A DNA stretch of 64,000 nt from Patescibacteria group bacterium UBA4787 (GTDB lineage: Bacteria > Patescibacteriota > Patescibacteriia > UBA2591 > UBA4787). Below the pieces are notes generated by a model that saw only the letters and a list, made by a program, of their open reading frames with translations, was not told the DNA's origin and searched no databases. Made by a program: the position numbers and the translations under genes. Shown piece by piece: positions 6,377 to 61,284 of this stretch. How positions within the stretch are numbered: the stretch's first letter is position 1; every line of letters begins with the position of its first letter. The DNA is taken from the NCBI GenBank assembly GCA_002402995.1, contig DHGX01000004.1, positions 155,670 through 219,669 of the forward strand. The letters are read 5' to 3'.

Positions 6377-6671
6377 ATGCGATAGACGTTAATATTCCAA
6401 CTTATACCCCGTAATACAACTTCGACTGGGCCGACTATCATCGGCCCAAAAAAGACCCGGGAGAATTTTGTTAGTTAGATTGATAAACCCCGTTAGAGAT
6501 TTAAAATTAAATATATTTAGGAGATTGACAAGAGCCGTGAGGCGGCTTTGCCTTAGTTGGGCGACAAAAGATAGTCTCGGCTGAATCTCTAACGGGGTAA
6601 ACATAAATACTTACTAAGACCTAAAAAATTATGAAAAATATCGAAGATGATATACGGGGTATGCTGATTGA

Positions 6672-8408: not shown

Positions 8409-8491
8409 AACTATTTCGAAACTTAATCCGCCAACCGGCGAAACCGTCCGGTGAATTAAAGTCTATATCACAGATCTATATAAATCTTTAT

Positions 8492-8578
8492 TTATTATCA
8501 AGCGAACGAGTGAAATGAAAAACGAAGTTTTTTATTTCCGACCTGTCTCGCCGACGCGAGTCAAGGCGGGGCGAGCGA
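8492..8578 (+). repeat. Repeat family A copy 1, between ftsL and ftsI
   Basis: TTATTATCAAGCGAGCGAGCGAAATGAAAAACGAAGTTTTTTATTTCCGACCTGTCTCGCCGACGCGAGTCAAGGCGGGGCGAGCG. Confidence 0.7.
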
Positions 8579-8591
8579 AGATAACACAGAG

Positions 8592-8942
8592 TTAATACTC
8601 TTTATTTTGCGCAACAGCAGCAATGCCGTCTTTTACATAATCAAGCGCCTTCGCCTCAACTAAATTTAATTTTTGGGCGTCCACGGCTATGTTTTCAATA
8701 GATTTAGTCCGCGACAATTCAATAATAATATTCTGATTATCTGCTATTAATTCTTTGGTTCTTCCATCCAAACTGCGCATAACGTATCCAGCCGAAGCTA
8801 TGCGATTAGCCTGAAAAAGATAAAACCCGAGAAAAATTACAAAACAACCGATAAACAATAAATTAATCTTTTTATAAAACGAATTAGTTAGGCCTAGAAA
8901 ATTGGATTTTAACCCCCCATTGCCCTGATAATATTTTGTCAT
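8592..8942 (-). CDS. Small bitopic cell-division protein (FtsL-like)
   Basis: Single TM, 116 aa, located between rsmH and ftsI. Confidence 0.45.
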   Translation of the reverse strand: MTKYYQGNGGLKSNFLGLTNSFYKKINLLFIGCFVIFLGFYLFQANRIASAGYVMRSLDGRTKELIADNQNIIIELSRTKSIENIAVDAQKLNLVEAKALDYVKDGIAAVAQNKEY

Positions 8943-10459: not shown

Positions 10460-11542
10460 TTAATCGATTACTTCTTTTTTAACAATTCTCGCAATGGCTA
10501 ATTCTTCGTTGGTTTTGATCGCGAGAATCTTCGACTTATTAAGAATTTTTAGATTTTTAATAGCTCGTTGGCGCGTAATGGCATCTCCTGCTCCAATTGC
10601 GCCGGTAAAAATTATAGCGTCTATTTTTCCTAAAATTGCCGAATAAGCGCCAATATATTTTTTAATTCGATTAATAAATATTTCAAAAGCTAGTTTTGCT
10701 CTTTTATCTCCCCTTCTTAACCCTTTTAATAAAGACAAATAATTTTTTCGTCCGGACAAACCTAATATCCCTGAATGATGATTCAAGATACTATTTATTT
10801 CTTCAATGCTTAATTTCAAAGAATCATGTAAATAAAAAATTATACCCGGATCTAAATCGCCGGAGCGCGTTTGCATTACCAATCCTTCTAGCGGCGTAAA
10901 CCCCATCGAAGTTTCTATGGCCTTTCCTTTTTGAATTGCCGTTATTGAGCATCCGCCGCCCAAATGACAAGTGATCAAATTTATTTTTGTTATATTTTTC
11001 TTTAATAAGAGGGCTGCTTCTTCGGCCACATACTCATGAGAAATCCCATGAAAACCAAATCTTTGCACGCCCTGTTCATAAAAATATAGAGGCAAGGGAT
11101 AAATCTTGCTTACTAAGGGTAGGTTGCTAAAAAAAGACGTATCAAAAATAGCCAAATGTAAAACATTCGGCAGAAAAAGCATCGTTAGACGAGCAACAGC
11201 TAAGCTATATGGATTATGAAGTGGCGCTAATTTATTATAAGCCTCAATTTTTTTTAAAACATCCTCGTTAAGCCTGGTTGGTTTAGTAAATTCTCGTCCG
11301 CCGTGAACAAAACGATAACCAACTGCCGCGATAAAATTAAGATTGTTAAATTGCAAAAATATCTTACGCAAAGCTTCGTGATGATTTCTTATTTTTTCAC
11401 CGTGACCTATATTGTTAATTGAACTGTCCAACAAGCAATTGAGATCCTGGAAATCAAATAATTTATACTTTAACGAAGTACTGCCTGCGTTCAAAACTAA
11501 TATAACTTTTTTATTTTGAAAATTATTATCTTTTTTGGCCAT
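10460..11542 (-). CDS. ackA: Acetate/propionate kinase family
   Basis: LVLNAGSTSLKYKLF signature. Start moved to MAKKD (ATG at 11542); the upstream ORF-track extension begins at a TTG and overlaps the neighbouring gene. Confidence 0.7.
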   Translation of the reverse strand: MAKKDNNFQNKKVILVLNAGSTSLKYKLFDFQDLNCLLDSSINNIGHGEKIRNHHEALRKIFLQFNNLNFIAAVGYRFVHGGREFTKPTRLNEDVLKKIEAYNKLAPLHNPYSLAVARLTMLFLPNVLHLAIFDTSFFSNLPLVSKIYPLPLYFYEQGVQRFGFHGISHEYVAEEAALLLKKNITKINLITCHLGGGCSITAIQKGKAIETSMGFTPLEGLVMQTRSGDLDPGIIFYLHDSLKLSIEEINSILNHHSGILGLSGRKNYLSLLKGLRRGDKRAKLAFEIFINRIKKYIGAYSAILGKIDAIIFTGAIGAGDAITRQRAIKNLKILNKSKILAIKTNEELAIARIVKKEVID

Positions 11543-11571: not shown

Positions 11572-12711
11572 TTAGAAATAAACGAGTTGATAGATAATAC
11601 CTAAAACGAAAACAACACAAATGAAATAAGCGATAAATTTAGGCAAAGCAAAATTATATTCAGGGCTGCGATCTCCTAATTTTTTAGCTCGGTAAAAAGC
11701 CATAATAATTAAAATACCTTCTGTCCCGGCAATAATACCACCGGCGAAACCAATAACTTTAATAAAACTATTTAACCCCAAAAGGAATAAGATCATTGGC
11801 ACTGAAACAGCCAATAAACTAGCCCAAGTAAGGGGAATTTTATGGTCGCGATTAAAAAATTGACGCAGAGCGTAGCCTAGAGATACAAACGAAGTTAAAA
11901 CACTTAAAAGGCCAAAAAGAGCTCCAGTTAAAATAATCTTCGGTCCCATTATTTTTATCAAGCCACTAATTGCATCTTCGCTGGTATGTGAACCGCTCAC
12001 CCCAACCACCGAAAAAGTAAAAATCGCATAAACCAATATAGGAATAACCAAGCCGCCTATCACTAGAGCCGAGCGCATTAAATTCGCGTCATTGCCTAGA
12101 ATCTTGCGCATAGTGGGCACGGCGGTCAAACCACCCAAAGCAAATAGAACTACTCCATAAGGATAAAAAATATTAGTCGCATTAAAATCTTGATAATTTT
12201 CCGGATTAATATATTTAAGGCTAAAAATAAAAACCAACAGAGTCATCAAAATTAAAAGCGTGGTCATGCCTAGTTCGGCCTTAGCCATAACTTTTGAACC
12301 TCTCATAATTAAATAACTGCCGATGATCCAAAAAATTATAGCATAAATCAAGTCGCTACCGCCAAAGATAGGCGCAAAAACAATGGGCGCGAATTTACTA
12401 AAAGCGATAATATAAGCTATCAAAGCGCTATAAAGACCCAAAAGTAGAGAAATACCCATAATCCACCAAGCCTTTTGTCCTAAATATTTTTTAATATAAC
12501 CACTCACACCCAGTGGACCATTGGTTCGTAAAACGATTTCTCCGAAACAAAAATTAGTAACCAACACAATGAGTCCTAAGAAAATCAAATAAACAATACC
12601 TCCAATATAACCAATTTGGGCAAAAGCATACGGTAAACCAAAAATACCTGCACCGACTACGGTTCCTAAGAGTACAGCGATTGTTTCAAAAAAAGTTACA
12701 TATTTCTTCAT
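11572..12711 (-). CDS. Polytopic membrane transporter (amino-acid permease-like)
   Basis: ~11 TM helices. Probable start MKKYVTFF at 12711; the TTG at 12732 lies inside repeat A3. Confidence 0.45.
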   Translation of the reverse strand: MKKYVTFFETIAVLLGTVVGAGIFGLPYAFAQIGYIGGIVYLIFLGLIVLVTNFCFGEIVLRTNGPLGVSGYIKKYLGQKAWWIMGISLLLGLYSALIAYIIAFSKFAPIVFAPIFGGSDLIYAIIFWIIGSYLIMRGSKVMAKAELGMTTLLILMTLLVFIFSLKYINPENYQDFNATNIFYPYGVVLFALGGLTAVPTMRKILGNDANLMRSALVIGGLVIPILVYAIFTFSVVGVSGSHTSEDAISGLIKIMGPKIILTGALFGLLSVLTSFVSLGYALRQFFNRDHKIPLTWASLLAVSVPMILFLLGLNSFIKVIGFAGGIIAGTEGILIIMAFYRAKKLGDRSPEYNFALPKFIAYFICVVFVLGIIYQLVYF

Positions 12712-12722
12712 AAATCGAGTTT

Positions 12723-12780
12723 TTATTATCAAGCGAGCGAGCGAAATGAAAATTTCTTTTTCATTTCCGAACGAGCACAG
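12723..12780 (+). repeat. Repeat family A, partial copy 3, at the permease 5' end
   Basis: TTATTATCAAGCGAGCGAGCGAAATGAAAA... Confidence 0.5.
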
Positions 12781-12802
12781 ATATCAAAAAGTTTAATACC
12801 TT

Positions 12803-13750
12803 TTATTTTAATAATTTAGTTTGTTCAACGTGTCCGTATAATTTGGTGTATTCATTGTTAACTTTATCTAAAGCGTTCTTGGCGTTGGCAATGTGGCCGG
12901 TCGCTACGCCCAAAATTTCTCCTAATTTCTGTGTATCGTGTTCGACGGCCTGCAGAATTCTAATAATTTTTTTGGCCTCTTCCTGGAGCTGCTGACCCTT
13001 CATGCCAACCATAATAATTTTAATAAAATAATAAAAAGTATTTGGCGAAACAAAATAGACCTTTTTCTGCTTCGCGTAATTATCAAGATCAAAATCAGAT
13101 TTACTGACTAGCTCGTAATAAATCACTTCTGAGGGGATGTACATAACCGCGAAATCAACCGTTCCCTCCTCTGGTAAAATATATTTATTACTAATCTCGT
13201 CTATTTTGGTTTTTACCGCCTTAATGCATTCTTTAAAAATTTTCGTTTGTTCTTCCTCGTCTTTCGAAGACAAATAGCGCTGAAAACTTTCTAACGGAAA
13301 TTTAGCATCAATAGGAATAATGCCGTCATTGGTTTTTAAAATAGCATCGACGATTTGTCCGCTTCTAAATTTATATTGCATAACAAAATGATCTTTAGAA
13401 AAAAACTGCTCTAGAAGATCCTGTAAAACCTGTTCGCCGATATTGCCTCGCAATTTGGGAGATTTCAAAAAATCTTGGAAGCTTTGAATTTGATGTCCGA
13501 TCTCTTTAACGCCGCCCAATTCATGCGTAACCTCGCTAATAACTTGCGCTGCCTTATCTAAACGTTCGTTGATAGCCTTGGTAGTATCATCTAAACGGCC
13601 CTGCATTCCTTGGATGTTCTGATTTAATAGAATCAACGATTGATCTGATTTTTGTCTTTCTTCTGATTGCTTTATCCGTTGGTTGATTAAATAGAATAAA
13701 ATTAAAAAACCAGCCAAAATAACGCCGCTTAAAATAATTGTAGACAACAT
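12803..13750 (-). CDS. rmuC: DNA recombination protein RmuC
   Basis: N-terminal TM plus coiled coil, C-terminal RmuC-like domain. Confidence 0.55.
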   Translation of the reverse strand: MLSTIILSGVILAGFLILFYLINQRIKQSEERQKSDQSLILLNQNIQGMQGRLDDTTKAINERLDKAAQVISEVTHELGGVKEIGHQIQSFQDFLKSPKLRGNIGEQVLQDLLEQFFSKDHFVMQYKFRSGQIVDAILKTNDGIIPIDAKFPLESFQRYLSSKDEEEQTKIFKECIKAVKTKIDEISNKYILPEEGTVDFAVMYIPSEVIYYELVSKSDFDLDNYAKQKKVYFVSPNTFYYFIKIIMVGMKGQQLQEEAKKIIRILQAVEHDTQKLGEILGVATGHIANAKNALDKVNNEYTKLYGHVEQTKLLK

Positions 13751-16923: not shown

Positions 16924-19179
16924 TTAATGGGTATAATGCCAAAGCAAAACCGCGTTGATTCGTTCCGGTTCCCCCAATAACTCGTACAACCTTTTTAAAA
17001 TATCCTGTCGATAACGCACGTCTATCCAACGCTCTTCGGTCATAAAATAACAATCTTTGGCATTGGTGAGTTCCATGGCCTTTTTTAAATATTTAATTGA
17101 AGGCGCCTTATTCATATTGTTAAAAATCTGGACTCGTTCCGGTTGACTATATTCAAAATAAACAGGAAATCCTCCGGCTACGATATATTTAGACGAGGCG
17201 GCTTCTATGGCTAAAAGCGGCCAAGTATTGGCGATTACGCAATAATTACCGTTTGGCGAGGCATGCGGTTTGATTTTTTGCCACAAGTAATCGGCCGCTT
17301 CTAATTCTCCTTTGGAAACCATCTGCATTTTTGGCCCGGAAGCATAAACAGTGGTAGTGGTAAAAGAAAAAATCAGAAATAAACACGCCGCTAAAAATTT
17401 CTTGGAAAAAAATTGATTTTTCTTTTCAACCAACAACTGGTTGACTCCGCCGACGATAAGAAATAAAAACAAATAACTGATTATTAATATTAAACGTTTA
17501 GTAAAAATATGGTTGCCATTCATAAAATGTGATCCGATAAATTGTCCTAAAAGCAACGCTGGCAAAAAGATCGACGCCAAAATTAAAAATTTATTTTTGA
17601 ATTTTATAGCATAAATAAAACCAAAAAGGGCAATTAATAAAATAGCGGGCGTCAAAAGATATGGCCAACGCGTAATTTTAAAAAGAATACTCCGGCTCAA
17701 TGTTTCATTATTTTGCATAAAAAGCCAATTATCCTGTTCCATGTTGGCGACACGCGGGAAAATCGACGAAGAAATAATTAAATTTTTCCCAAAATTAACC
17801 AACTGACTTCTTAAATTGGCTAAACTATAAATGGGTTTATCAAAAATAAAATGAGAATAATTATTTACGGTGTCTAAGAATGGAAAAAGAAATATCAAAT
17901 TTAGAAACAAACAAAACAAAACAAAAACTATTATCCATTTTTCCTTCTTATGAATGGAGTGTGAATAAATTTTAAACAGGATCGCGAAAACCAATAAAAT
18001 GACAAACAGAACAAGATATAAAATATAATTCAAATATAAAACAGGAAAGCATAAAATTAACGCGACAATTAAGCCAATTGATTTACGCGGTCCGCCCAAA
18101 TAGAACAGAACCAAAAAGAAAGCGAGTAAAAACACCATAAAACCAAAGGCATTGGGCACGGTAATGGCCCCATAAACTTGAAACGGAAAAAACATTAATG
18201 ACAATAAGGCGGCTAAACAAGAAATTCTTTGTTTCTTGAAAATCAGCGCACTTATAAGGAAAGTCAAAATCGGCACAAAAATCGACCACATTAAAAACCC
18301 TAAAAAATAATCAACCCAAAAAACATCAACGCTGGTTAACCAAGACGCGGTCGCGGTCAAACCCCACATATTGGCATAAGAATTTTTATTGCCCACCAAA
18401 AAAACCTTGGGCAATTTAATGCCTAAAAAATTTACGGTTTCCGTCGGCTCTCCCCACAAACTAGGCGAGTAAATATTCCCTTCCATTAACCATTTCTCTG
18501 CTCCGATGTGGCGCCAACGATCGCCGCCAAAACCCACGGGATAAACTATTAATAAATAAGAATGGACAACCAGGGAAACTAAAATAATTATAAATAATGT
18601 CGTTTTGATCCTGGCTCGAGAAAAAATCAGAATGAGGCTCAAAAAAATCAAAAAACCGATAAAATAAAAAACTAATGGCGAAACTCTAGTCCAAGGAGAC
18701 AGCAAATAAGAATCCGAACGGCCGCGAAAAAACAAAAAAATAGTTAAACAGGAAAAAATAATAATAGAAAGAATTAACCAAAAAGTTTTAATTTTAAAAA
18801 ATGGCTCTTCTTTGGCGTCTTCTGGGGCTTCAAGAATCTTTTTTTGATTAGACAAGGCTAGTCCTATTATTAAAATAAATATTAAACCATAAATAATCCA
18901 GTTAAAATTAAGCTTGTATAAAAATATAGGCAGGGCCGTTAAAAAAGAAATCAGAACCAATACAACAAAAATACCGACTAATATTCTTATTTTCTTATTC
19001 ACAACTGAAATTTGAGAAAAAATTATACCCCACTCGCGTCCAGTTAAAAAAAGATAAAATAAAAACAGAGCTACGCCGATAATTTGATAATGATAAAATC
19101 TAGCGTTAATAAATAAAGCGAAAATTACCAACAAAGAAACCAGCAAGGTTATAAGCTTTTTTTTAAATTCGCTTTTCAT
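16924..19179 (-). CDS. Large polytopic membrane protein, putative GT-C-type glycosyltransferase
   Basis: 751 aa, >15 TM helices, periplasmic-facing C-terminal domain. Confidence 0.35.
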   Translation of the reverse strand: MKSEFKKKLITLLVSLLVIFALFINARFYHYQIIGVALFLFYLFLTGREWGIIFSQISVVNKKIRILVGIFVVLVLISFLTALPIFLYKLNFNWIIYGLIFILIIGLALSNQKKILEAPEDAKEEPFFKIKTFWLILSIIIFSCLTIFLFFRGRSDSYLLSPWTRVSPLVFYFIGFLIFLSLILIFSRARIKTTLFIIILVSLVVHSYLLIVYPVGFGGDRWRHIGAEKWLMEGNIYSPSLWGEPTETVNFLGIKLPKVFLVGNKNSYANMWGLTATASWLTSVDVFWVDYFLGFLMWSIFVPILTFLISALIFKKQRISCLAALLSLMFFPFQVYGAITVPNAFGFMVFLLAFFLVLFYLGGPRKSIGLIVALILCFPVLYLNYILYLVLFVILLVFAILFKIYSHSIHKKEKWIIVFVLFCLFLNLIFLFPFLDTVNNYSHFIFDKPIYSLANLRSQLVNFGKNLIISSSIFPRVANMEQDNWLFMQNNETLSRSILFKITRWPYLLTPAILLIALFGFIYAIKFKNKFLILASIFLPALLLGQFIGSHFMNGNHIFTKRLILIISYLFLFLIVGGVNQLLVEKKNQFFSKKFLAACLFLIFSFTTTTVYASGPKMQMVSKGELEAADYLWQKIKPHASPNGNYCVIANTWPLLAIEAASSKYIVAGGFPVYFEYSQPERVQIFNNMNKAPSIKYLKKAMELTNAKDCYFMTEERWIDVRYRQDILKRLYELLGEPERINAVLLWHYTH

Positions 19180-33909: not shown

Positions 33910-33938
33910 TTGACAAAAATAAATATTTTTGTTATATT
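33910..33938 (+). promoter_or_regulatory. Sigma70-like promoter (TTGACA-17-TATATT) for the Cys-rich ORF
   Basis: Perfect -35, 17-nt spacer, -10 TATATT, about 55 nt upstream of the SD. Confidence 0.5.
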
Positions 33939-35978: not shown

Positions 35979-36158
35979 AAAATTTCTTTTTTCGAAAAAT
36001 CTTTAATATTAATTAAATCATTTTCTTAAAAATAAGTAAACAAATTAAATATAACTGATGAGTGAGGAGAAAAATAAAAGCTTGCTTTTGGATTTTCTCC
36101 GAACAAACCAATTTCACACGCGAAGCAAATATAATTAATTGATTGTCAAATTAAAAAA

Positions 36159-39050: not shown

Positions 39051-39164
39051 TATTTATAATTGGTGAGCGGAGGAACAGATAAAAAGAATTTTTATCTGAT
39101 TCCGGACTTGCCCCGTCCGGTGGCGGGGGTGAGCCAATCTCACAAGCGAAGCGAGTATAATAAG
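39051..39164 (+). repeat. Repeat family B copy 1 (TATAAT - three-hairpin core - TATAAT), immediately upstream of folD
   Basis: About 85% identical to 58722-58820; predicted hairpins at 39072-39103, 39111-39128 and 39129-39143. Confidence 0.6.
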
Positions 39165-39184: not shown

Positions 39185-39994
39185 ATGATCATCGACGGAA
39201 AAAAAATAGCCCAAAAAATAAAAAATCAAATTAGGCGACAACTGAAAAACAAAAGAGCGCGACCTGGTTTGGCTGTGATTTTAATTGGCGATAATCACGC
39301 TTCTTTGAGCTATATTAAACAAAAAAAAATAGCCGCTAAATATTGTTTTATTAATTTTAAACTATTCCATTTTAATAATACTGCTCCCGAAAGATTAATC
39401 CTTAAAACAATCGCTAATCTCAACAAAAATAAAAAAATAAACGGCATTATTGTCCAATTGCCTTTGCCCAAAAGATTTAATACTCAAAAAATTATTGACG
39501 CCATTGATCCCGAAAAAGACGTTGACGGTTTTCGGTTGAAAAGCCAATTTTCTTCTCCAACCCATCAAGCTATTATTAAAGCCGTAAAATCAACCTGCGA
39601 AAATTTAAACAATAAAATAATCGCCCTTGTAGGCAAAAAATCGATTTTCACGATAGGATTAGAGAAAAGATTAATAAAATTGTTTCCAAAAAGTAAAATT
39701 AAGTCTTATTTTTTCAAATATGATCCGTTGGTAAAAATTAAAAAAGGAACAAAAATAGCCGATGCTGTTATTGTCGCCTTAGGTAAAGCCGAATGGCTTA
39801 AATCTAATATGATCAAAAAGGGTGTAATTATTATTGACGTAGGTTTTAATAAAAAAAACACCACTATAATCGGTGATGTTTCCAAAAATATTTATCCGAA
39901 AACCAAATATTATACACCCGTGCCTGGCGGTATCGGTCCCATGACTGTCGCCTATCTTATAAACAACGTATTGAAATCTTTTAAACGCAGCTAA
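39185..39994 (+). CDS. folD: Bifunctional methylene-THF dehydrogenase/cyclohydrolase
   Basis: MIIDGKKIAQKIK N-terminus; FolD layout. Confidence 0.75.
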   Translation: MIIDGKKIAQKIKNQIRRQLKNKRARPGLAVILIGDNHASLSYIKQKKIAAKYCFINFKLFHFNNTAPERLILKTIANLNKNKKINGIIVQLPLPKRFNTQKIIDAIDPEKDVDGFRLKSQFSSPTHQAIIKAVKSTCENLNNKIIALVGKKSIFTIGLEKRLIKLFPKSKIKSYFFKYDPLVKIKKGTKIADAVIVALGKAEWLKSNMIKKGVIIIDVGFNKKNTTIIGDVSKNIYPKTKYYTPVPGGIGPMTVAYLINNVLKSFKRS

Positions 39995-42950: not shown

Positions 42951-42981
42951 AGTATTAAATCTATATTAATTAAATTAAACA

Positions 42982-43077
42982 TTATTATCAAGCGAGCGAG
43001 CGAAATGAGAAACGAAGTTTTTTATTTCCGACCTGTCTCGCCGACGCGAGTCAAGGCGGGGCGAGCGCGGACAACAC
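42982..43077 (+). repeat. Repeat family A copy 2 (~95 bp, two hairpins)
   Basis: Near-identical to 8492-8578. Confidence 0.7.
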
Positions 43078-43092
43078 GGGGTTAAATACCCC

Positions 43093-46934: not shown

Positions 46935-46936
46935 CA

Positions 46937-47035
46937 AAACCTATAAATTGTATACGGGGCAAGGAACCGCCCCTGGCCCGTAGTGAAACGAAGTTTCTAC
47001 CACTGGGCCGTCCTAGTTCACCCCGCTAAATAATT
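46937..47035. repeat. GC-rich multi-hairpin element (family D-like) downstream of tRNA-Glu
   Basis: Hairpins GGGGC..GCCCC and GGCCCG..TGGGCC; shares TACGGGGCA(A)GG and CGTCCT.GTTCAC with the in-frame insert in the ELP3-like gene. Confidence 0.4.
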
Positions 47036-54456: not shown

Positions 54457-56370
54457 TTACGGTTGCACTTTTCCTTTATTGTTGGCGATGGGATCAAAAC
54501 GTAAATTAGTGGTAAGGTGGTCGGTGGATACATTAAAATTCTGTTCGGTAAAACTGTCGTTTCCACTCAAGATTAAATTTTTGAGCAAATCCGCGTAACC
54601 ACCAACCTGATCAACCGTGGGCACTAAAGTTACGGAAAAAGAGATTTCTTTAGGTAAACGCTTGACGCCGTTATAAGGTTCGATTTTATCAATCTTATAA
54701 CTAACCTCTCTACTGCCTTGATTATAGAAGAAATTACTTTCCAATTGACCTTGATCCAATAGAGTTACATTCGCCGGTAAATTGGCTTTAAAATTAACAT
54801 TGTTTATTTCGCTGGAACCGTTCTGAATATAAATATATATTTTATAAGTAGTTTCTTCGCCTACTTTGGCCGGCAAAATACCACGCCCGATTTTAACCAT
54901 TTCGTCGCTGTAATATCTAGCTTCGCCTGTAAGACTTATCTGATTGCTGATTTTATAATCATAGGAAGGAGTATTAATAAAGAATTTCTCGTCAGAAGAA
55001 TTAAGACCGTTAATTTTTAATAAAAGACTCAGGGTGGGATTAATACTTTTTCTAATGGCAAAATCTTTGAAAGAACTTAATTTCATTTTAAAACTTATCT
55101 CCCCTTTCTCGCCGGCCGAAATTTTACTAAGTATAGGCAATTGATTTTTATCCCATTCTAAAATTTTATTCGAAGAAGTTCGCCAAACGGAAGAAACTAT
55201 CGCGCTATTTTCTTTGGTCAAATCTTTCCATGACCAATCTGATCGAGTTAAATAACGCCAATCAACGATATCGCCATTTTTAATTTCCAAATCTATTGTT
55301 AAATCTTTTAGGTATTGATCACTGTTATTTTCATAATGCAAAACAACCGGCAATTCTTGTTGCCAATCCAAAACAGGCGTATCGCTTTCTATTTTTAAAC
55401 TAGCCGACAAAAACGGCATAGTTAAATTAAGGTCAAATGTCATTTCTTGCTGGGCGAAAAATATCTGGCTATCTTTAAACAGACCGACGGTTATCTTCAA
55501 AGACCGATTCAGACTAGTAAAATCATCAAAATACGCGCTAAAACTCAAAGACAAAGGATCTCCCGCGCCCAAAATAGAAATATCGATGTATTTTTTTTGG
55601 CTTGCGTCTTGATTAAGACGATAGTTCGTATTGTCCGATTCGTTGAGAGAATCAACAATAAAATCTTTACCCCCATCAATATAAATTCTCACATTTTGTA
55701 TGGCGTCTTCGGTCAAATTTTCAATTTTTATTCCCCAATCGGCCTCTTGGCCGATAATTGCGTCCGACGGCGATAACATTTCAAAGTTGACGACGGACTC
55801 AACGTTAACTTCTTTCTCGGCATCCATAGCAAATTTTGACGTAAAATCCACCAAATAATAATCAAGCTTAGCTGATAATTTTTGTTTATTGATTATTGAG
55901 CTTTCTGTGAACCGCCCACCGAAAGAAATCTCTTTAATTTCGCCTTTTTTCAATTTAAAAATCGACCAATCGCAGCCGCTTGAAAGCCTGACGCTACATG
56001 GTTCAGAAAGACTGCTTTCGTCCAATTCAAAACTCTCTGGCCAATTCACGACAAGTTCAGCGCTTTTCAGGTCGGACTTTTCTTGATTGTTAATAATAAT
56101 CTTGAACTGATTGGACTCAAAGCTTTTAATCTTATTCGGCGAAATAATATTTATTGATATTTTTTTGTTTTGCCCGCCGACACCAGGAGCGTTATTGCCA
56201 AAATACACAAAACCAGCCAAAATCGCAACAGCCGAAAGAAAAAGTATAACAAAAAGAATAATCAAAAATCGCGGCCAAATTGGTTTATTGTATTTGACGA
56301 AATCTTTATAGTTATCGGTGGTTTTATTTTTATAATAACCCGCCAATTCCTCAAGTGAGGTTTTTTGCAT
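54457..56370 (-). CDS. Hypothetical N-terminally anchored, beta-rich extracytoplasmic protein
   Basis: Single N-terminal TM; 637 aa; no recognisable catalytic motif. Confidence 0.35.
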   Translation of the reverse strand: MQKTSLEELAGYYKNKTTDNYKDFVKYNKPIWPRFLIILFVILFLSAVAILAGFVYFGNNAPGVGGQNKKISINIISPNKIKSFESNQFKIIINNQEKSDLKSAELVVNWPESFELDESSLSEPCSVRLSSGCDWSIFKLKKGEIKEISFGGRFTESSIINKQKLSAKLDYYLVDFTSKFAMDAEKEVNVESVVNFEMLSPSDAIIGQEADWGIKIENLTEDAIQNVRIYIDGGKDFIVDSLNESDNTNYRLNQDASQKKYIDISILGAGDPLSLSFSAYFDDFTSLNRSLKITVGLFKDSQIFFAQQEMTFDLNLTMPFLSASLKIESDTPVLDWQQELPVVLHYENNSDQYLKDLTIDLEIKNGDIVDWRYLTRSDWSWKDLTKENSAIVSSVWRTSSNKILEWDKNQLPILSKISAGEKGEISFKMKLSSFKDFAIRKSINPTLSLLLKINGLNSSDEKFFINTPSYDYKISNQISLTGEARYYSDEMVKIGRGILPAKVGEETTYKIYIYIQNGSSEINNVNFKANLPANVTLLDQGQLESNFFYNQGSREVSYKIDKIEPYNGVKRLPKEISFSVTLVPTVDQVGGYADLLKNLILSGNDSFTEQNFNVSTDHLTTNLRFDPIANNKGKVQP

Positions 56371-56431
56371 ATAAATATTATTTCTTTTTTTCCGTTACCT
56401 CTATATTGTTTAATCTTTGTAGTTTCTTTAT

Positions 56432-56516
56432 ACTTGCTTCGCTTCGTGAAATCGGCTCGCTACGGAATCAGACAAAAATTCTTTTTGCCTGTTCCTCCGC
56501 TCAACAATTATAAAGG
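56432..56516 (-). repeat. Repeat family B, partial inverted copy (lacks the GC hairpin)
   Basis: rc ~85% identical to the 39051-39105 core plus right flank. Confidence 0.5.
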
Positions 56517-56530
56517 GCATTAACCCTGTG

Positions 56531-57769
56531 TTATCCGCGCTCGCTCGGAAGGACAAGCGAGCTTGTCTTTCTCTCGCTCGCTTGATAATAAAATTTAATG
56601 GTTTCCTTTGCCGTATCTTCCCAACTAAATTCTTTAGCTCTTTCTCGACCAGATTTGCTTAAGTCGTGCCATAGATGCGTATCGGTCAAAAGATCTGACA
56701 TGGCTTGGGCAATCTCGGAAACATTAAAGGGGTCAACTAAAATAGCGTGCCCCCTGGCTATTTCCGGCATTGAAGAAATATTACTGGTTATCACCGGCAC
56801 GCCATTAGCCATAGCTTCTAAAATTGGCAGGCCGAAACCCTCGTAAAGACTGGGAAAAATAAAAAATTTGGCGCCCTGAAATAAAGGGTCCAAATCTTCC
56901 GGATCTATATAGCCTGGAAGCAAAATATCGTCTTTATATTTTGAATCATTGATCCTTTCAAAAATTTGATCATATTGGTTGCCCGGCTTGCCGGCTAAAA
57001 CTAATTGGTATTTAGACAATAAATGATTAATGCTTGACTGTTCTTCGGCTTGAGAGGCTTGTGGCAGTTCAATTAATTTATCTCTTAATCTTTCGTAAGA
57101 TTCTACGATACGAAAAACATTTTTCCGGCTATCTATTGTTCCTAAAAACAAAACGTAGTTCGCGCCAATACCTAACCTGGTTTTAACTTTTTCAATTTCT
57201 CCTGAGGGTACTTGCCTAAAAAACCTCTTGTCTACTCCATGATAAATTAATTTTATATTCTCGCTTTTTACTGAAAAAATATCCTGAATGTCTTTTTTCG
57301 TTGATTGAGAAACGGTTATTATTTTTTCGGCCTGTTTAACCGCGGAAGAGGTATTTGAATACAACATTTTCCGCTCTTTTTCGGAATAGAGCTCCGGAAA
57401 CTTATAAACCGCTAGATCGTGAATCGTAATTATTGAAGGATAACTATAAGAGCTTGGCAAATCGGCTGTCGGCGAATGGAAAACGTCAAGTTTTTCTTTG
57501 GCTAAAAGAGCGCTAGCCAAAAAATTAGAATAAGATTGAGGCAAGAATTTCCTATATTGGACGAATGGGAAAAATTTAATTTCTACATTATCTTCCTCGA
57601 ATTTTGATAAACGCCTATTAGCTACCCCTCGATCAAAGAATAAAACATAAAAATTATCTTTATCAACTTCAAGTAAATGCCTTACTAATTGATAAGTATA
57701 ATGCCCCACTCCGGCCGCTTCCCCTTTCTCGGGATTTAAAATTGTACGACAGTCAATTCCTATTTTCAT
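56531..57769 (-). CDS. Glycosyltransferase family 4 (GT-B)
   Basis: EGFGLPILEAMANGVPVITSN. Start placed at MKIGIDCRT (ATG at 57769). Last ~15 codons and the stop are supplied by an A-family-like palindromic repeat (56536-56593). Confidence 0.75.
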   Translation of the reverse strand: MKIGIDCRTILNPEKGEAAGVGHYTYQLVRHLLEVDKDNFYVLFFDRGVANRRLSKFEEDNVEIKFFPFVQYRKFLPQSYSNFLASALLAKEKLDVFHSPTADLPSSYSYPSIITIHDLAVYKFPELYSEKERKMLYSNTSSAVKQAEKIITVSQSTKKDIQDIFSVKSENIKLIYHGVDKRFFRQVPSGEIEKVKTRLGIGANYVLFLGTIDSRKNVFRIVESYERLRDKLIELPQASQAEEQSSINHLLSKYQLVLAGKPGNQYDQIFERINDSKYKDDILLPGYIDPEDLDPLFQGAKFFIFPSLYEGFGLPILEAMANGVPVITSNISSMPEIARGHAILVDPFNVSEIAQAMSDLLTDTHLWHDLSKSGRERAKEFSWEDTAKETIKFYYQASERKTSSLVLPSERG

Positions 57770-57873
57770 AATGTATTTATTATACTCGCTACGCTCGTAA
57801 AATTGGTTCGCCCCGCTTCGCCGGAGCTCTCGCCACGCTAACGCGTTGGCGTAGCGGGTTAGCGAGGCGAGTC

Positions 57874-58081
57874 GGAGCCAAATCAAAAGAAGATTTTTGT
57901 TTGACGTCCTCGCTCATTCATTATAAGCAAAGCTTGAAATTTCTTCGCTCGGAGTCAAATCAAAAGAAGACTTTTGTTTGACGTCCTCGCTCATTCATTA
58001 TAAGCAAAGCTTGAAATTTCTTCGCTCGGAGTCAAATCAAAAGAAGACTTTTGTTTGACGTCCTCGCTCATTCATTATAAC
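57874..58081 (+). repeat. Tandem repeat, 77-bp unit x about 2.7
   Basis: Units start at 57874, 57951 and 58028 and are >95% identical; contains a TTATAAG/TATAAT-like box. Confidence 0.8.
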
Positions 58082-58184: not shown

Positions 58185-58634
58185 ATGCCGATTGAAACGA
58201 CCAACAAAAAAGCCTTTTTTGATTATCAAATACTTGAAAAATATGAAACGGGCATAGTTTTGACTGGTCCGGAAGTTCGTTCTATTAAAGAGGGCGGCGT
58301 CAGTTTAGCCGGGGCTTACGTCGTCATCGACGAAAAACTGAATCCTTTGTTGATTAACGCCCATATATCCCCTTATAAATATGCCGCGAATCAGATCAAG
58401 TACGACGCCGTTCGCTCCCGCAAACTGCTTTTGAAGAAAAAAGAATTGAATTATCTTCTAGGAAAAACAAGAGTAAAAGGCTTGACATTGATACCTCTTA
58501 AAATATATACTAAGGGTGGTTTGATAAAAATAGAGATTGGTTTGGCAAAACACAAACGATCGATAGATAAGCGAGAAATCGTCAAAAAAAGAGAATTAGA
58601 CCGGGTCATCAAACAGAGTTTTAAAAGTTATTAG
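58185..58634 (+). CDS. smpB: SsrA-binding protein SmpB
   Basis: Conserved SmpB sequence (GIVLTGPEVRSIK...KLLLKKKEL...KIEIGLAKHKR). Confidence 0.85.
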   Translation: MPIETTNKKAFFDYQILEKYETGIVLTGPEVRSIKEGGVSLAGAYVVIDEKLNPLLINAHISPYKYAANQIKYDAVRSRKLLLKKKELNYLLGKTRVKGLTLIPLKIYTKGGLIKIEIGLAKHKRSIDKREIVKKRELDRVIKQSFKSY

Positions 58635-58647
58635 ATTATAATTGGCA

Positions 58648-58694
58648 GCGAGGATGTCAAACAAAAGTCTTCTTTTGATTTGACTCCGAGCGAA
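58648..58694 (-). repeat. Inverted partial copy of the 77-bp repeat unit
   Basis: GCGAGGATGTCAAACAAAAGTCTTCTTTTGATTTGACTCCGAGCGAA equals the rc of the unit with one mismatch. Confidence 0.7.
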
Positions 58695-58820
58695 CCAATT
58701 TCACGAAGCGAAACGAGTATAATTGGTGACCGGAGGAACAGACAAATTTTTTGTCTGATTCCGGACTTGCCCCGTCCAACGGCGGGGGTGAACCAATTTC
58801 ACAAACAAAAGAAGTATATT
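58683..58820 (+). repeat. Repeat family B copy 2 (flank-core-flank, ~107-bp period), ending at the tmRNA 5' end
   Basis: GAACCAATTTCAC...GTATAAT flank occurs at 58688 and 58795; core is ~85% identical to 39061-39143. Confidence 0.6.
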
Positions 58821-59198
58821 GGGGATGAATAAAATCGACGAGAAAGAACAGATAAAGATGGCTTTCCGCTCGAAGGTAAGCGCGTTCCTTCAAAAATACA
58901 AATGCCAATTTATTTGGTAGACTAAAGCAAGCTTCTCAGCCTGCTTATAGTCTTGCTGTGGCTTAACAAAGCCGTGGCCGCTAAAAGTTTGACTCCTGTT
59001 AAAACTTGAAGCGCTTAATCAGCAGGATTAGCTTAAACGAATCCGGCCTAATTCGTTTGGCGAAACAAATTTGGCCATGGTTAATATGGATTTTGTTTGG
59101 TTTTTACCATAATAACCGAGATCAAAACCGAACTACGAAGGTAGAGGTCTTTATTTAACTTTCTTCGGACGGGGGTGAAATACCCCCCATCTCCACCA
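58821..59198 (+). ncRNA. ssrA: tmRNA (ssrA)
   Basis: 5' GGGGATGAATAAAATCGACGAG resembles the E. coli tmRNA 5' end; 3' GGACGGGGGTGAAATACCCCCCATCTCCACCA forms a T-arm-like hairpin and a 7-bp acceptor with G3-U70; internal tag reading frame ...ASQPAYSLAVA-stop (58904-58966); adjacent to smpB. Confidence 0.75.
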
Positions 59199-59732: not shown

Positions 59733-59927
59733 ATGAAGAAAAAAACGAAAAAATTAATTTCCAAAAGATTCGTTATCAAGGGCAAGAAAAAAAATAGAAA
59801 ACTAATGCATCTATCCTGCGGTAGCGCTCACTTCAACGCTAAAGAGAAAGGAAAAACCACTAAGAATAAAAGAAGGTCCAAAGTTTTATCTAATAGGATC
59901 AAAAAAGTGATTATAAAATATATATGA
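59733..59927 (+). CDS. rpmI: Ribosomal protein L35
   Basis: 64-aa very basic protein directly after infC. Confidence 0.7.
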   Translation: MKKKTKKLISKRFVIKGKKKNRKLMHLSCGSAHFNAKEKGKTTKNKRRSKVLSNRIKKVIIKYI

Positions 59928-60075
59928 TGGGCATTAACCCCTTGTTTTGTCTTCGCTCGGAGAAAATGTAAAACTGTCGTTTCTCATTTTACTCTTCACT
60001 CGACAAAATAAAATATTTTTGGTTTAATTTATTTAATTTAAAAGAATAATATTTTAAGAATAATATTTTAAATAT

Positions 60076-60420: not shown

Positions 60421-60527
60421 TTCGCCGCGATTTTATTTGCGAGCGAGCGAGAGAAGAGCAAATGAATTTGCTTTTCCGAGCGAGCGAAGCAAACACAGGA
60501 TTTTATTATCCTTTATCTGATATAATT

Positions 60528-60602: not shown

Positions 60603-60727
60603 CTTTTATAAATTATAGATAGGATTCGAACGCCGGAACGATTTTCGCCAGCAGGCGAAAACGCGAGGCGGTGCCTAGCCCGAGGAACGCGACTGGCGCG
60701 ACGAGAGGCGAAGGCGAATCCCTTCGC
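60603..60727 (+). repeat. GC-rich ~105-bp insert ending in a 19-bp duplicate of the tRNA-Asp 3' end (CGAATCCCTTCGCGACCGC)
   Basis: Direct repeat of tRNA-Asp 60584-60602 at 60709-60727; 10-bp-stem hairpin at 60641-60668. Confidence 0.6.
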
Positions 60728-60823
60728 GACCGCTTTTTACAATATTTATAAAATTCCGCCTGCTTGGGCGGAATTTTATTATTTATATCTCTTGTTTATA
60801 TTTATTTATTTATTTATTAATTA

Positions 60824-61172: not shown

Positions 61173-61232
61173 AATTATAAACATATTTATAGCTGGAATT
61201 TAATCATCTTCTCAAACCCTATTCTATCCACT

Positions 61233-61283
61233 CCGACGCTTCGGTCGGAGCCCCGACTTTACGTCGGGGTTGAGCTATGAGGG
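61233..61283. repeat. Two GC hairpins plus a 13-14-bp duplicate of the tRNA-Arg 5' end
   Basis: CCGAC-gcttcg-GTCGG; CCCCGAC-ttta-cGTCGGGG; TGAGCTATGAGGG repeats tRNA-Arg 61160-61172. Confidence 0.55.
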
Positions 61284-61284
61284 A

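Follow-up and report, generated by a model that had tools for sequence, protein, structure and literature searches.

A stretch of 64,000 nucleotides from the metagenomic Patescibacteria genome UBA4787 (assembly GCA_002402995.1, contig DHGX01000004.1, positions 155,670 to 219,669; hereafter the window, with a G+C content of 37%) carries a short hairpin-forming repeat bounded by TATAAT-like boxes, upstream of folD, upstream of the transfer-messenger RNA (tmRNA) gene and, inverted, at a third place. The locus raises the question whether such a repeat is a mobile element, a structured RNA or a promoter, and a first-pass annotation, made from the letters alone, had proposed either a mobile promoter-bearing element or a structured RNA or leader family. 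Patescibacteria genomes are very small and tightly packed, and to our knowledge small mobile repeats have not been described from them. Here, the copies are read, with a probability of roughly 0.6, as lineage-restricted, small, non-coding, hairpin-forming mobile repeats of the MITE (miniature inverted-repeat transposable element) type, inserted at TATAAT hexamers. This reading is carried by the anatomy of the units, the dispersal of their copies, filled and empty orthologous sites, covariation in the stem and a bias in orientation. The observation of the first-pass annotation is thereby partly confirmed and its interpretation partly supported, in that mobility stands and the tmRNA promoter does not.

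All three copies are present at about the places first given, namely c1 upstream of folD (39055-39161, +), c2 upstream of the tmRNA gene (58718-58820, +) and c3 (56427-56512, -) upstream of the open reading frame (ORF) at 54457-56370 (-). Each opens with TATAAT, after which comes TGGTGAGCGGAGGA or a version that differs by one base; this agrees with the start already assigned to them right after the box (TGGTGAGCGGAGG or a one-base variant), and the AT hairpin with a bulged A (GGAACAGAYAAA.../...TTTRTCTGATTCC) was correctly described for all of them. Their 3' part consists of AGCGARCCAATYTCAC, a tail rich in purines (GAAGCGAAGCGAG) and another TATAAT-like box. Identity between c1 and c2 is 85% over 71 nt, and c1 and c3 are 92% complementary over 52 nt. 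The other two helices described proved less general: c1 and c2 have the GC hairpin, differing in its loop alone, but c3 lacks it, while GTGAG-CCAAT-CTCAC exists in c1 and c2 (GTGAA-CCAAT-TTCAC) but is not family-wide, as CCAATT usually pairs with AATTGG. Specifically, the body of c1 (39061..39155, +; 5' module TGGTGAGCGGAGGA, tail AAGCGAAGCGAG) lies between a left box at 39055..39060 and a right box at 39156..39161, and contains the AT hairpin at 39072-39103, the GC hairpin at 39111-39128 and GTGAG-CCAAT-CTCAC at 39129-39143.

Across the family, a unit reads from box to box TATAAT, TGGTGAGCG(G)AGGA, a variable AT-rich hairpin, CCG, AGCGARCCAATTTCAC, GAAGCGAAGCGAG, TATAAT, over about 82 nt (units range from 77 to 149 nt), with an extra GC hairpin in part of the units. 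The core is an imperfect palindrome that runs from AATTGG through the variable hairpin to CCAATT and is followed by a 20-nt asymmetric tail (TCAC GAAGCGAAGCGAG TAT). A GGAGG-like stretch invariably marks the foot of the hairpin on its 5' side. The hairpin itself, set between conserved flanks, is swapped among several discrete types; from the B type of c1-c3 to the E type (locus L099, 2908-2991) the shape is kept and the sequence is wholly replaced (A-U to G-C, C-G to U-A and one pair to U·G). Neighbouring units are chained head to tail in mixed order, always with one TATAAT in common.

The possibility that only these three copies exist is refuted, since the window alone contains nine units, plus a sister family described below; together they make up about 2% of its length. 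Scores given here are those of a covariance model built from 19 units (CM R1), under which c1 reaches 52 bits. Immediately before c2 there is a unit with a different hairpin (GTCAAACAAAAG/CTTTTGATTTGAC) at 58637..58723 (+, 90.7 bits), which starts 2 nt past the smpB stop and whose right box is the left box of c2. The earlier extent of c2 (58683-58820) had merged the 3' module of this neighbour with c2, and the supposed periodic duplication of about 107 bp in the flank is this second complete unit with its different hairpin, the boxes being 81 and 97 nt apart. c2 contains both AT and GC hairpins, while c3 (88.1 bits) has the AT hairpin without the GC hairpin and ends in TATAAA. Upstream of a glycosyltransferase gene (ATG at 57769), a three-unit array occupies 57779..58079 (-), with boxes at 58079-58074, 58002-57997, 57925-57920 and 57784-57779 and a large GC-rich hairpin in its last unit. 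A degenerate unit at 36050..36135 (+, left box ATATAA, 85.5 bits) is opposed to both flanking genes. Finally, a hybrid at 59924..60010 (-, 31 bits) combines a unit-type hairpin with a sister-family 3' end and lies antisense between rpmI and rplT.

Further copies were sought with a profile of the 3' module (nhmmer), a pattern scan of public collections and CM R1; a first regular expression for the units was too strict and was superseded by nhmmer on the 3' module and then by the covariance model. About 25 further units were found in approximately 110 kb of loci from two sister species, namely species G (L110, L111 and Ga0265296 contigs) and species H (Hainich groundwater contigs and GCA_964356475.1). 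Between species with about 88% DNA identity, the units are not the same. The genes they precede are unrelated: folD, the tmRNA gene, secG, secE, nusG, dnaA, infA, rpmJ, a murB-like gene and a glycosyltransferase gene. The covariance model found no unit in L114 and L115, relatives at 60% identity. A scan of a genome collection for the hairpin pattern returned 69 stretches, three of them genuine and all from one Patescibacteria metagenome-assembled genome, the others being chance matches, many of them in ABC-transporter genes; a scan of viral contigs gave no match. Within the reach of these searches, the family is restricted to a small group of Patescibacteria. A protein search with the ORF at 16924-19179 yielded no close orthologue (best 48% identity), so it added no synteny.

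Mobility is best seen where orthologous sites are filled in one species and empty in another. L110 is syntenic with the window over 49.0-62.3 kb at 85-91% identity, and L116 over 36-46 kb. At folD, species H reads ...ggactaaagggagTATAATaagcccgcattcaatagaaatatATG, that is, one TATAAT 23 nt before the ATG (gggagTATAATaagccc..ATG), while the window has TATAAT, a 95-nt unit and TATAATaagcccatattcaatagaaacatATG (TATAATaagccc..ATG). The c1 body is absent from L116, L117 and L118, and the single TATAAT of species H stands at the place orthologous to the left box of c1, which was read from the sequence. The right box (39156-39161) lies 23 nt before the folD ATG at 39185, as had been noted, and this box with the downstream aagccc..ATG is kept in the species without the unit. 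At secG the polarity is reversed: the window has an intact canonical ATTGACA-N17-TATAAT-actaatc, and L110 has ATTGACA-N17-TATAAT, 76 nt of unit and TATAAC-actaatc; comparison of these junctions places the unit exactly after the -10 hexamer, with the hexamer on either side. From the smpB stop to the first base of the tmRNA (G1), L110 and L113 have only ATCAT or ATCATT (5-6 nt) against 186 nt, equal to the two units 58637-58723 and c2, in the window. SmpB of the window is 87% identical to that of L110 and 82% to that of L113, which leaves L113 outside. Because SmpB groups the window with L110, a single insertion in the window lineage is more parsimonious here than two precise losses. The hybrid unit at 59924 is likewise absent in L110 and L113, and at the place of the unit at 36050-36135 L116 holds a different insert. 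Copy number varies as well: the glycosyltransferase gene has no unit in species H (L113), one in species G (L110) and three in the window, and dnaA has one unit in species H versus 3.3 in species G. Hairpin types are mixed within arrays, and unequal crossing-over alone is insufficient to explain this. TATAAT on both sides of the unit with a single TATAAT at the empty site was found at two of three sites (folD and secG), the junctions being compatible with a duplication of 2 to 6 bp. The proposal of a mobile MITE-like element is thus upheld by presence and absence at orthologous sites.

Whether the units also carry promoters depends on which box is considered. Canonical promoters exist elsewhere in the window (TTGACA-N17-TATAAT at secG, about 49.4 kb, and TTGACA-N17-TATATT at 33910). 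Among 17 arrays, the leftmost box is a perfect TATAAT in all, while the rightmost box is perfect in nine and degenerate in eight (p = 0.003 versus left). A TGn extension accompanies the leftmost box in 6/17 arrays against 6.7% of all 134 TATAAT of the window (p = 0.0006), and a -35 hexamer that matches in four or more of six positions precedes it in 6/17 against 15/134 (p = 0.016); nine of the 17 arrays have one or the other, and c1 and the tmRNA array have neither. Examples are TTGACA-N17 (secG, L110), TTGACA-N16 (rpmJ, L099) and TTGAAA-N16 with TG at the leftmost box of the window glycosyltransferase array. The leftmost box of an array looks like a possible working -10 hexamer, which makes the description of the element as promoter-bearing half right at most. 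It does not hold for the gene-proximal box, which has no TTGACA-like -35 and no TG and thus lacks these sigma-70 features, although the genome uses canonical TTGACA-N17-TATAAT elsewhere. Were the units portable promoter cassettes, this gene-proximal TATAAT would be the -10 of folD, the tmRNA gene and others, with CCAATT replacing TTGACA at -35. CCAATT does lie exactly 17 nt 5' of the right box in most units, the folD box and its distance from the ATG are conserved in a relative, and at the L099 murB-like gene and the glycosyltransferase gene 7-9 nt separate the right box from the ATG, a distance that fits leaderless mRNAs. Against this, the box abuts G1 of the tmRNA and is overlapped by the start codon at infA (TATGATG), neither of which is compatible with a -10 role; it decays in almost half of the arrays while the left box never does, and one unit subtype has a tail 5 nt shorter, which puts CCAATT out of register. 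The gene-proximal box cannot be a general promoter on this sequence evidence, and we consider the cassette explanation improbable. An extracytoplasmic function (ECF) sigma reading of GGAAC...TCTGA was rejected, as the spacing runs from 12 to 25 nt across copies.

The tmRNA gene was found full-length at 58821..59198 (+; Rfam RF00023, 93.8 bits); ARAGORN misses it in the window and in relatives, and Rfam was used instead. The second box of c2 had been placed 6 nt before the tmRNA and taken as its promoter, but it reads TATATT (58815-58820) and leaves no gap (0 nt) to G1 at 58821. It cannot be the tmRNA -10 because it abuts G1. Inside smpB, TTGACA-N18-TATACT at 58482..58511 (+) matches the consensus in 11/12 positions and is a candidate ssrA promoter. 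The window, L110 and L113 have it without any difference, and L115 (60% SmpB identity) retains the motif. In these relatives, the tmRNA begins 1-6 nt past the smpB stop. The motif, which lies within the coding sequence of smpB, is probably the ssrA promoter. Should it be used, the two units would belong to the leader of the tmRNA precursor and RNase P would have to remove them. tmRNA is probably made here from this promoter, via a leader that tolerates 186 extra bases. A separate length difference is seen between L114 (3457-3543) and L115 (3326), which encode identical SmpB: the gap between the smpB stop and the tmRNA is 87 nt in the former and 1 nt in the latter, and the 87-nt stretch opens with a second copy of the initial 30 nt of the tmRNA.

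Fold z-scores are -3.5 for c1, -4.2 for c2 and -1.85 for c3. Most units fold as one nested long hairpin, in which AAUUGG (overlapping the box) pairs with CCAAUU, with a GC/GC step and the main hairpin inside. A small hairpin (GTGAG/CTCAC) that c1 and c2 can form competes with this outer helix and is not general. In the 19-unit alignment, 93.3% of cells are paired, versus 85.3% after shuffling of the columns and 32-57% with slid partners. The compensatory substitutions that were to be looked for were found: eight pairs are changed on both sides, the outer AATTGG/CCAATT helix included, where G-C is replaced by U-A, A-U or C-G, and in the AT hairpin T-A of c1 versus C-G of c2 is such a change. 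The covarying inverted repeat AATTGG(T)/(G)CCAATT has its right arm 20 nt inside the right end of the unit. This covariation confirms a palindrome, whether selected or generated. The reverse strand folds equally well (z = -3.6 and -3.3 versus -3.5 and -4.2 forward), and G·U cells (8) do not exceed A·C cells (9). RNA function is not demonstrated by the covariation because both strands fold alike and G·U is not in excess; such symmetry fits a DNA palindrome. Several other structures were rejected: a long-range GGTGAG/CTCAC pairing, since L023 alters both sides without keeping the pair; a tRNA-like fold, for which there is no acceptor-type pairing of 5' and 3' ends; a mini-ORF after GGAGGA, as AUG occurs in one hairpin subtype only; and an intrinsic terminator, as stems are followed by no U-run and a terminator scan gave none at the units.

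These folds bear directly on the second proposal of the first-pass annotation. The units could form a family of cis-acting structured leader RNAs kept for function, as a 5' stabiliser, a processing signal or the site of a regulator, their presence and absence reflecting gain and loss of a useful module. Fourteen of 17 arrays have the orientation of the gene downstream of them (p = 0.006), mostly the first gene of a housekeeping operon; the hairpin shape is retained despite the wholesale replacement of sequence between B and E types, and the GGAGG-like stretch never leaves the 5' foot of the hairpin. Additionally, the organism has RNase J, an enzyme against which 5' stem-loops and Shine-Dalgarno-like stabilisers act in Bacillus. 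At the tmRNA gene and infA the unit stands between the only plausible promoter and the gene and hence must be transcribed. There is also a weak likeness to the Rfam consensus of GA-cis (RF02987): its gagAGGAGG, hairpin, CCGACGAcc, GC-rich hairpin and GGGGCG align with GAGCGGAGGA, hairpin, UCCGGAC, GC hairpin and GGGGGUG of c1. On the other hand, strands are symmetric, as said above, and the 5' arm of the covarying outer helix takes the AAT of TATAAT, bases that lie upstream of any start which that box could drive. At three places (36050, 59924 and the L084 array) the copy runs antisense to its neighbours, and close relatives do without a unit at folD, secG and the tmRNA gene. The GA-cis score, the best obtained, is 14.7 bits against a gathering threshold of 34.7 (E = 0.71 on 136 bases), and c2, the other window units and five related loci give no match, so membership was rejected and no Rfam family reaches its threshold for the units. 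The GA-cis model omits the TATAAT boxes and the AATTGG/CCAATT helix; a distant kinship with the two-hairpin units is possible from the aligned motifs. Overall, a conserved leader family is not demonstrated, and we regard this explanation as rather unlikely.

A further alternative sees in each unit a free-standing small RNA gene, with an RNA of about 80 nt made from each left box. Every unit has TATAAT ahead of it and folds stably. Even so, the terminator scan found nothing after any unit, with only three U residues past the stem, and units run directly into the next unit or gene; together with the Rfam result and the absence of units from close relatives at the same loci, this makes such genes very improbable.

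Returning to mobile repeats, the way in which units insert, the enzyme responsible, their transcription and any effect on expression are matters of inference. A unit would enter at a TATAAT hexamer, and TATAAT then found on each side would be a 6-bp duplication; a shorter TA or AT duplication, with the element's own ends completing the box, would fit equally well. Every insertion would rebuild its target, so that additional units, whether alike or different in hairpin type, could land alongside and produce mixed head-to-tail arrays. Units would gather just downstream of promoters because many intergenic sense-strand TATAAT are -10 boxes, and they would point toward the gene because the hexamer is asymmetric. 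After insertion, the original -35 and the left box would still work, the unit becoming the first 80 nt or so of the transcript, a leader with a GGAGG-like stretch and a stable stem-loop. Given RNase J, this leader hairpin could plausibly shield the 5' end, by extension from Bacillus. The right box would retain the old distance to the gene and lose its -35, and at the tmRNA gene both units would be cut off by RNase P within the precursor leader.

Several points weigh against this reading. No transposase or other mobilising enzyme was identified, though no dedicated search was made; the precomputed Pfam labels of genes in the syntenic loci (about 40 kb) name no transposase. The inverted repeat has its right arm short of the unit's end, with a 20-nt tail after it, so that the unit is not a textbook MITE. 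The third empty site, at the tmRNA gene, is ATCAT(T), and the TATAAT rule is clean at two of three sites only. Precise deletion between flanking TATAAT direct repeats could in principle give the empty sites, the outgroup favouring insertion at the tmRNA site only, and two 'empty' sites of the sister family resemble deletion footprints. As for the statistics, the array counts include two orthologous pairs, leaving about 15 independent loci, and left boxes were located partly via an ATAAT search. Finally, the strong bias to the 5' ends of housekeeping genes could equally mean a selected function.

Comparison with known systems places the units closest to the small dispersed repeats of bacteria. 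MITEs and related repeats (Correia/NEMIS of Neisseria, RUP, ERIC, YPAL) are shorter than 200 bp and combine TA termini, a duplication and long stem-loops with the occurrence of filled as well as empty sites; putative promoters are present in Correia elements, which are transcribed together with adjacent genes, and the inverted repeats of YPAL are internal rather than terminal (PMC2229807). Our units are likewise shorter than 200 bp and non-coding, with many dispersed intergenic copies, TA ends, an apparently duplicated flank and filled and empty sites, and their transcript would form a long stem-loop. They differ in a short inverted repeat (6-7 bp, AATTGG/CCAATT) followed by the asymmetric 20-nt tail, in the exchangeable hairpin between conserved flanks, in having the whole -10 consensus hexamer and not just TA at both junctions, and in head-to-tail chaining with a shared box; no insertion sequence is known to partner them. 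The BOX repeats of Streptococcus pneumoniae are modular, with a repeatable middle module, stand near gene starts and form stable hairpins, as do our units. There is no sequence similarity, however, and BOX is composed of modules boxA, boxB and boxC rather than of whole units delimited by boxes; we know of no TATAAT junction rule for it. 'Mobile promoters' are similar upstream segments ahead of unrelated genes in one genome, and the units too place a near-identical upstream segment with a -10 box before many unrelated genes, with the differences that the insertion point is mapped to the hexamer and that the gene-proximal box is seemingly less constrained. For an element derived from IS200/IS605 insertion sequences, the junctions would fit as well as with duplication if the element itself ended in TATAAT and inserted 3' of that hexamer, but the units have one main hairpin and not two similar subterminal ones. 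REP/BIME membership was rejected, as the main hairpin is AT-rich, there is no GTAG-type motif and copies run head to tail and not as inverted pairs.

A more specific version of target choice may be considered, though tentatively and as unlikely on present evidence: units may home specifically to the -10 hexamer and restore it at either end, with TATAAT as transiently melted in open promoter complexes being a possible target. If so, essential promoters would be invaded without being silenced in a tiny genome, and each insertion would make its own next landing site, explaining the mixed tandem arrays. The family would then represent a promoter-targeting class of bacterial mobile DNA, perhaps co-opted as a standard 5' leader. 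More generally, if units land in and restore -10 boxes, selfish DNA could spread through essential promoters at little cost, and many leaders in these organisms would start with the same hairpin. For annotation, repeated TATAAT boxes of this kind should not be called promoters, nor the hairpins RNA genes.

Apart from the units, the window contains a sister family with the same layout and other end modules: TTATTATCAAGCGAGCGAGCGAAA (GCGAGCGAGCGAAA) ... hairpin, CCGA, optional GC hairpin and GATAACACAGGGTTAATACCC-TTTATAA. Copies lie at 8465-8605, 12696-12806, 42955-43092, 56509-56599 (-) and 60431-60522; that at 56509-56599 has the left box of c3 (56507-56512) in common with it. The family is polymorphic between species like the units, and one of its copies encodes the last 20 or so codons of the glycosyltransferase ORF. 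Another dispersed family forms long hairpins (CCCCGTTAGAGATT ... AATCTCTAACGGGG) and was found in the window (about 6480-6600), L071 (about 11170-11290), L099 (about 2790-2900) and L116 (10392-10540), the L071 copy being nested within the 3' module of a unit. A 16-nt perfect palindrome, TCCGCCAGCTGGCGGA, occurs in the Hainich species only (L091 at 7126; L113 at 226 and 253; L116 at 4506, 11274 and 11389); as it sits at differing places in units and elsewhere, it may be a smaller, nested mobile palindrome.

Minor repeats were also observed around tRNA genes. Upstream of tRNA-Arg, an insert of about 115 nt (61173-61284, -), found only in the window genome and absent in L110, contains two GC hairpins and duplicates the initial 14-15 nt of tRNA-Arg (CCCTCATAGCTCAA). 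Its appearance is that of a very small element which inserted into the tRNA gene and restored the 5' end of that gene. Downstream of tRNA-Asp there is a partial second 3' half of this tRNA (60604-60740, +; GGATTCGAA...TCCCTTCGCGACCGC), with a GC-rich insert of about 95 nt in the T-loop, 96% conserved in L110. TATAATT abuts the mature 5' end of both tRNA-Asp (60521-60527) and tRNA-Arg (61173-61179), too near for a -10 role; L110 has AATAATT before tRNA-Asp and unrelated sequence before tRNA-Arg. Finally, a GC-rich structured segment upstream of tRNA-Glu (46935-47010, -; CGGGGTGAACTAGGACGGCCCAGTGGTAGAAACTTCGTTTCACTACGGGCCAGGGGCGG...), with no tRNA or Rfam call, recurs in L023 (about 790-850) beside a dnaA-box region.

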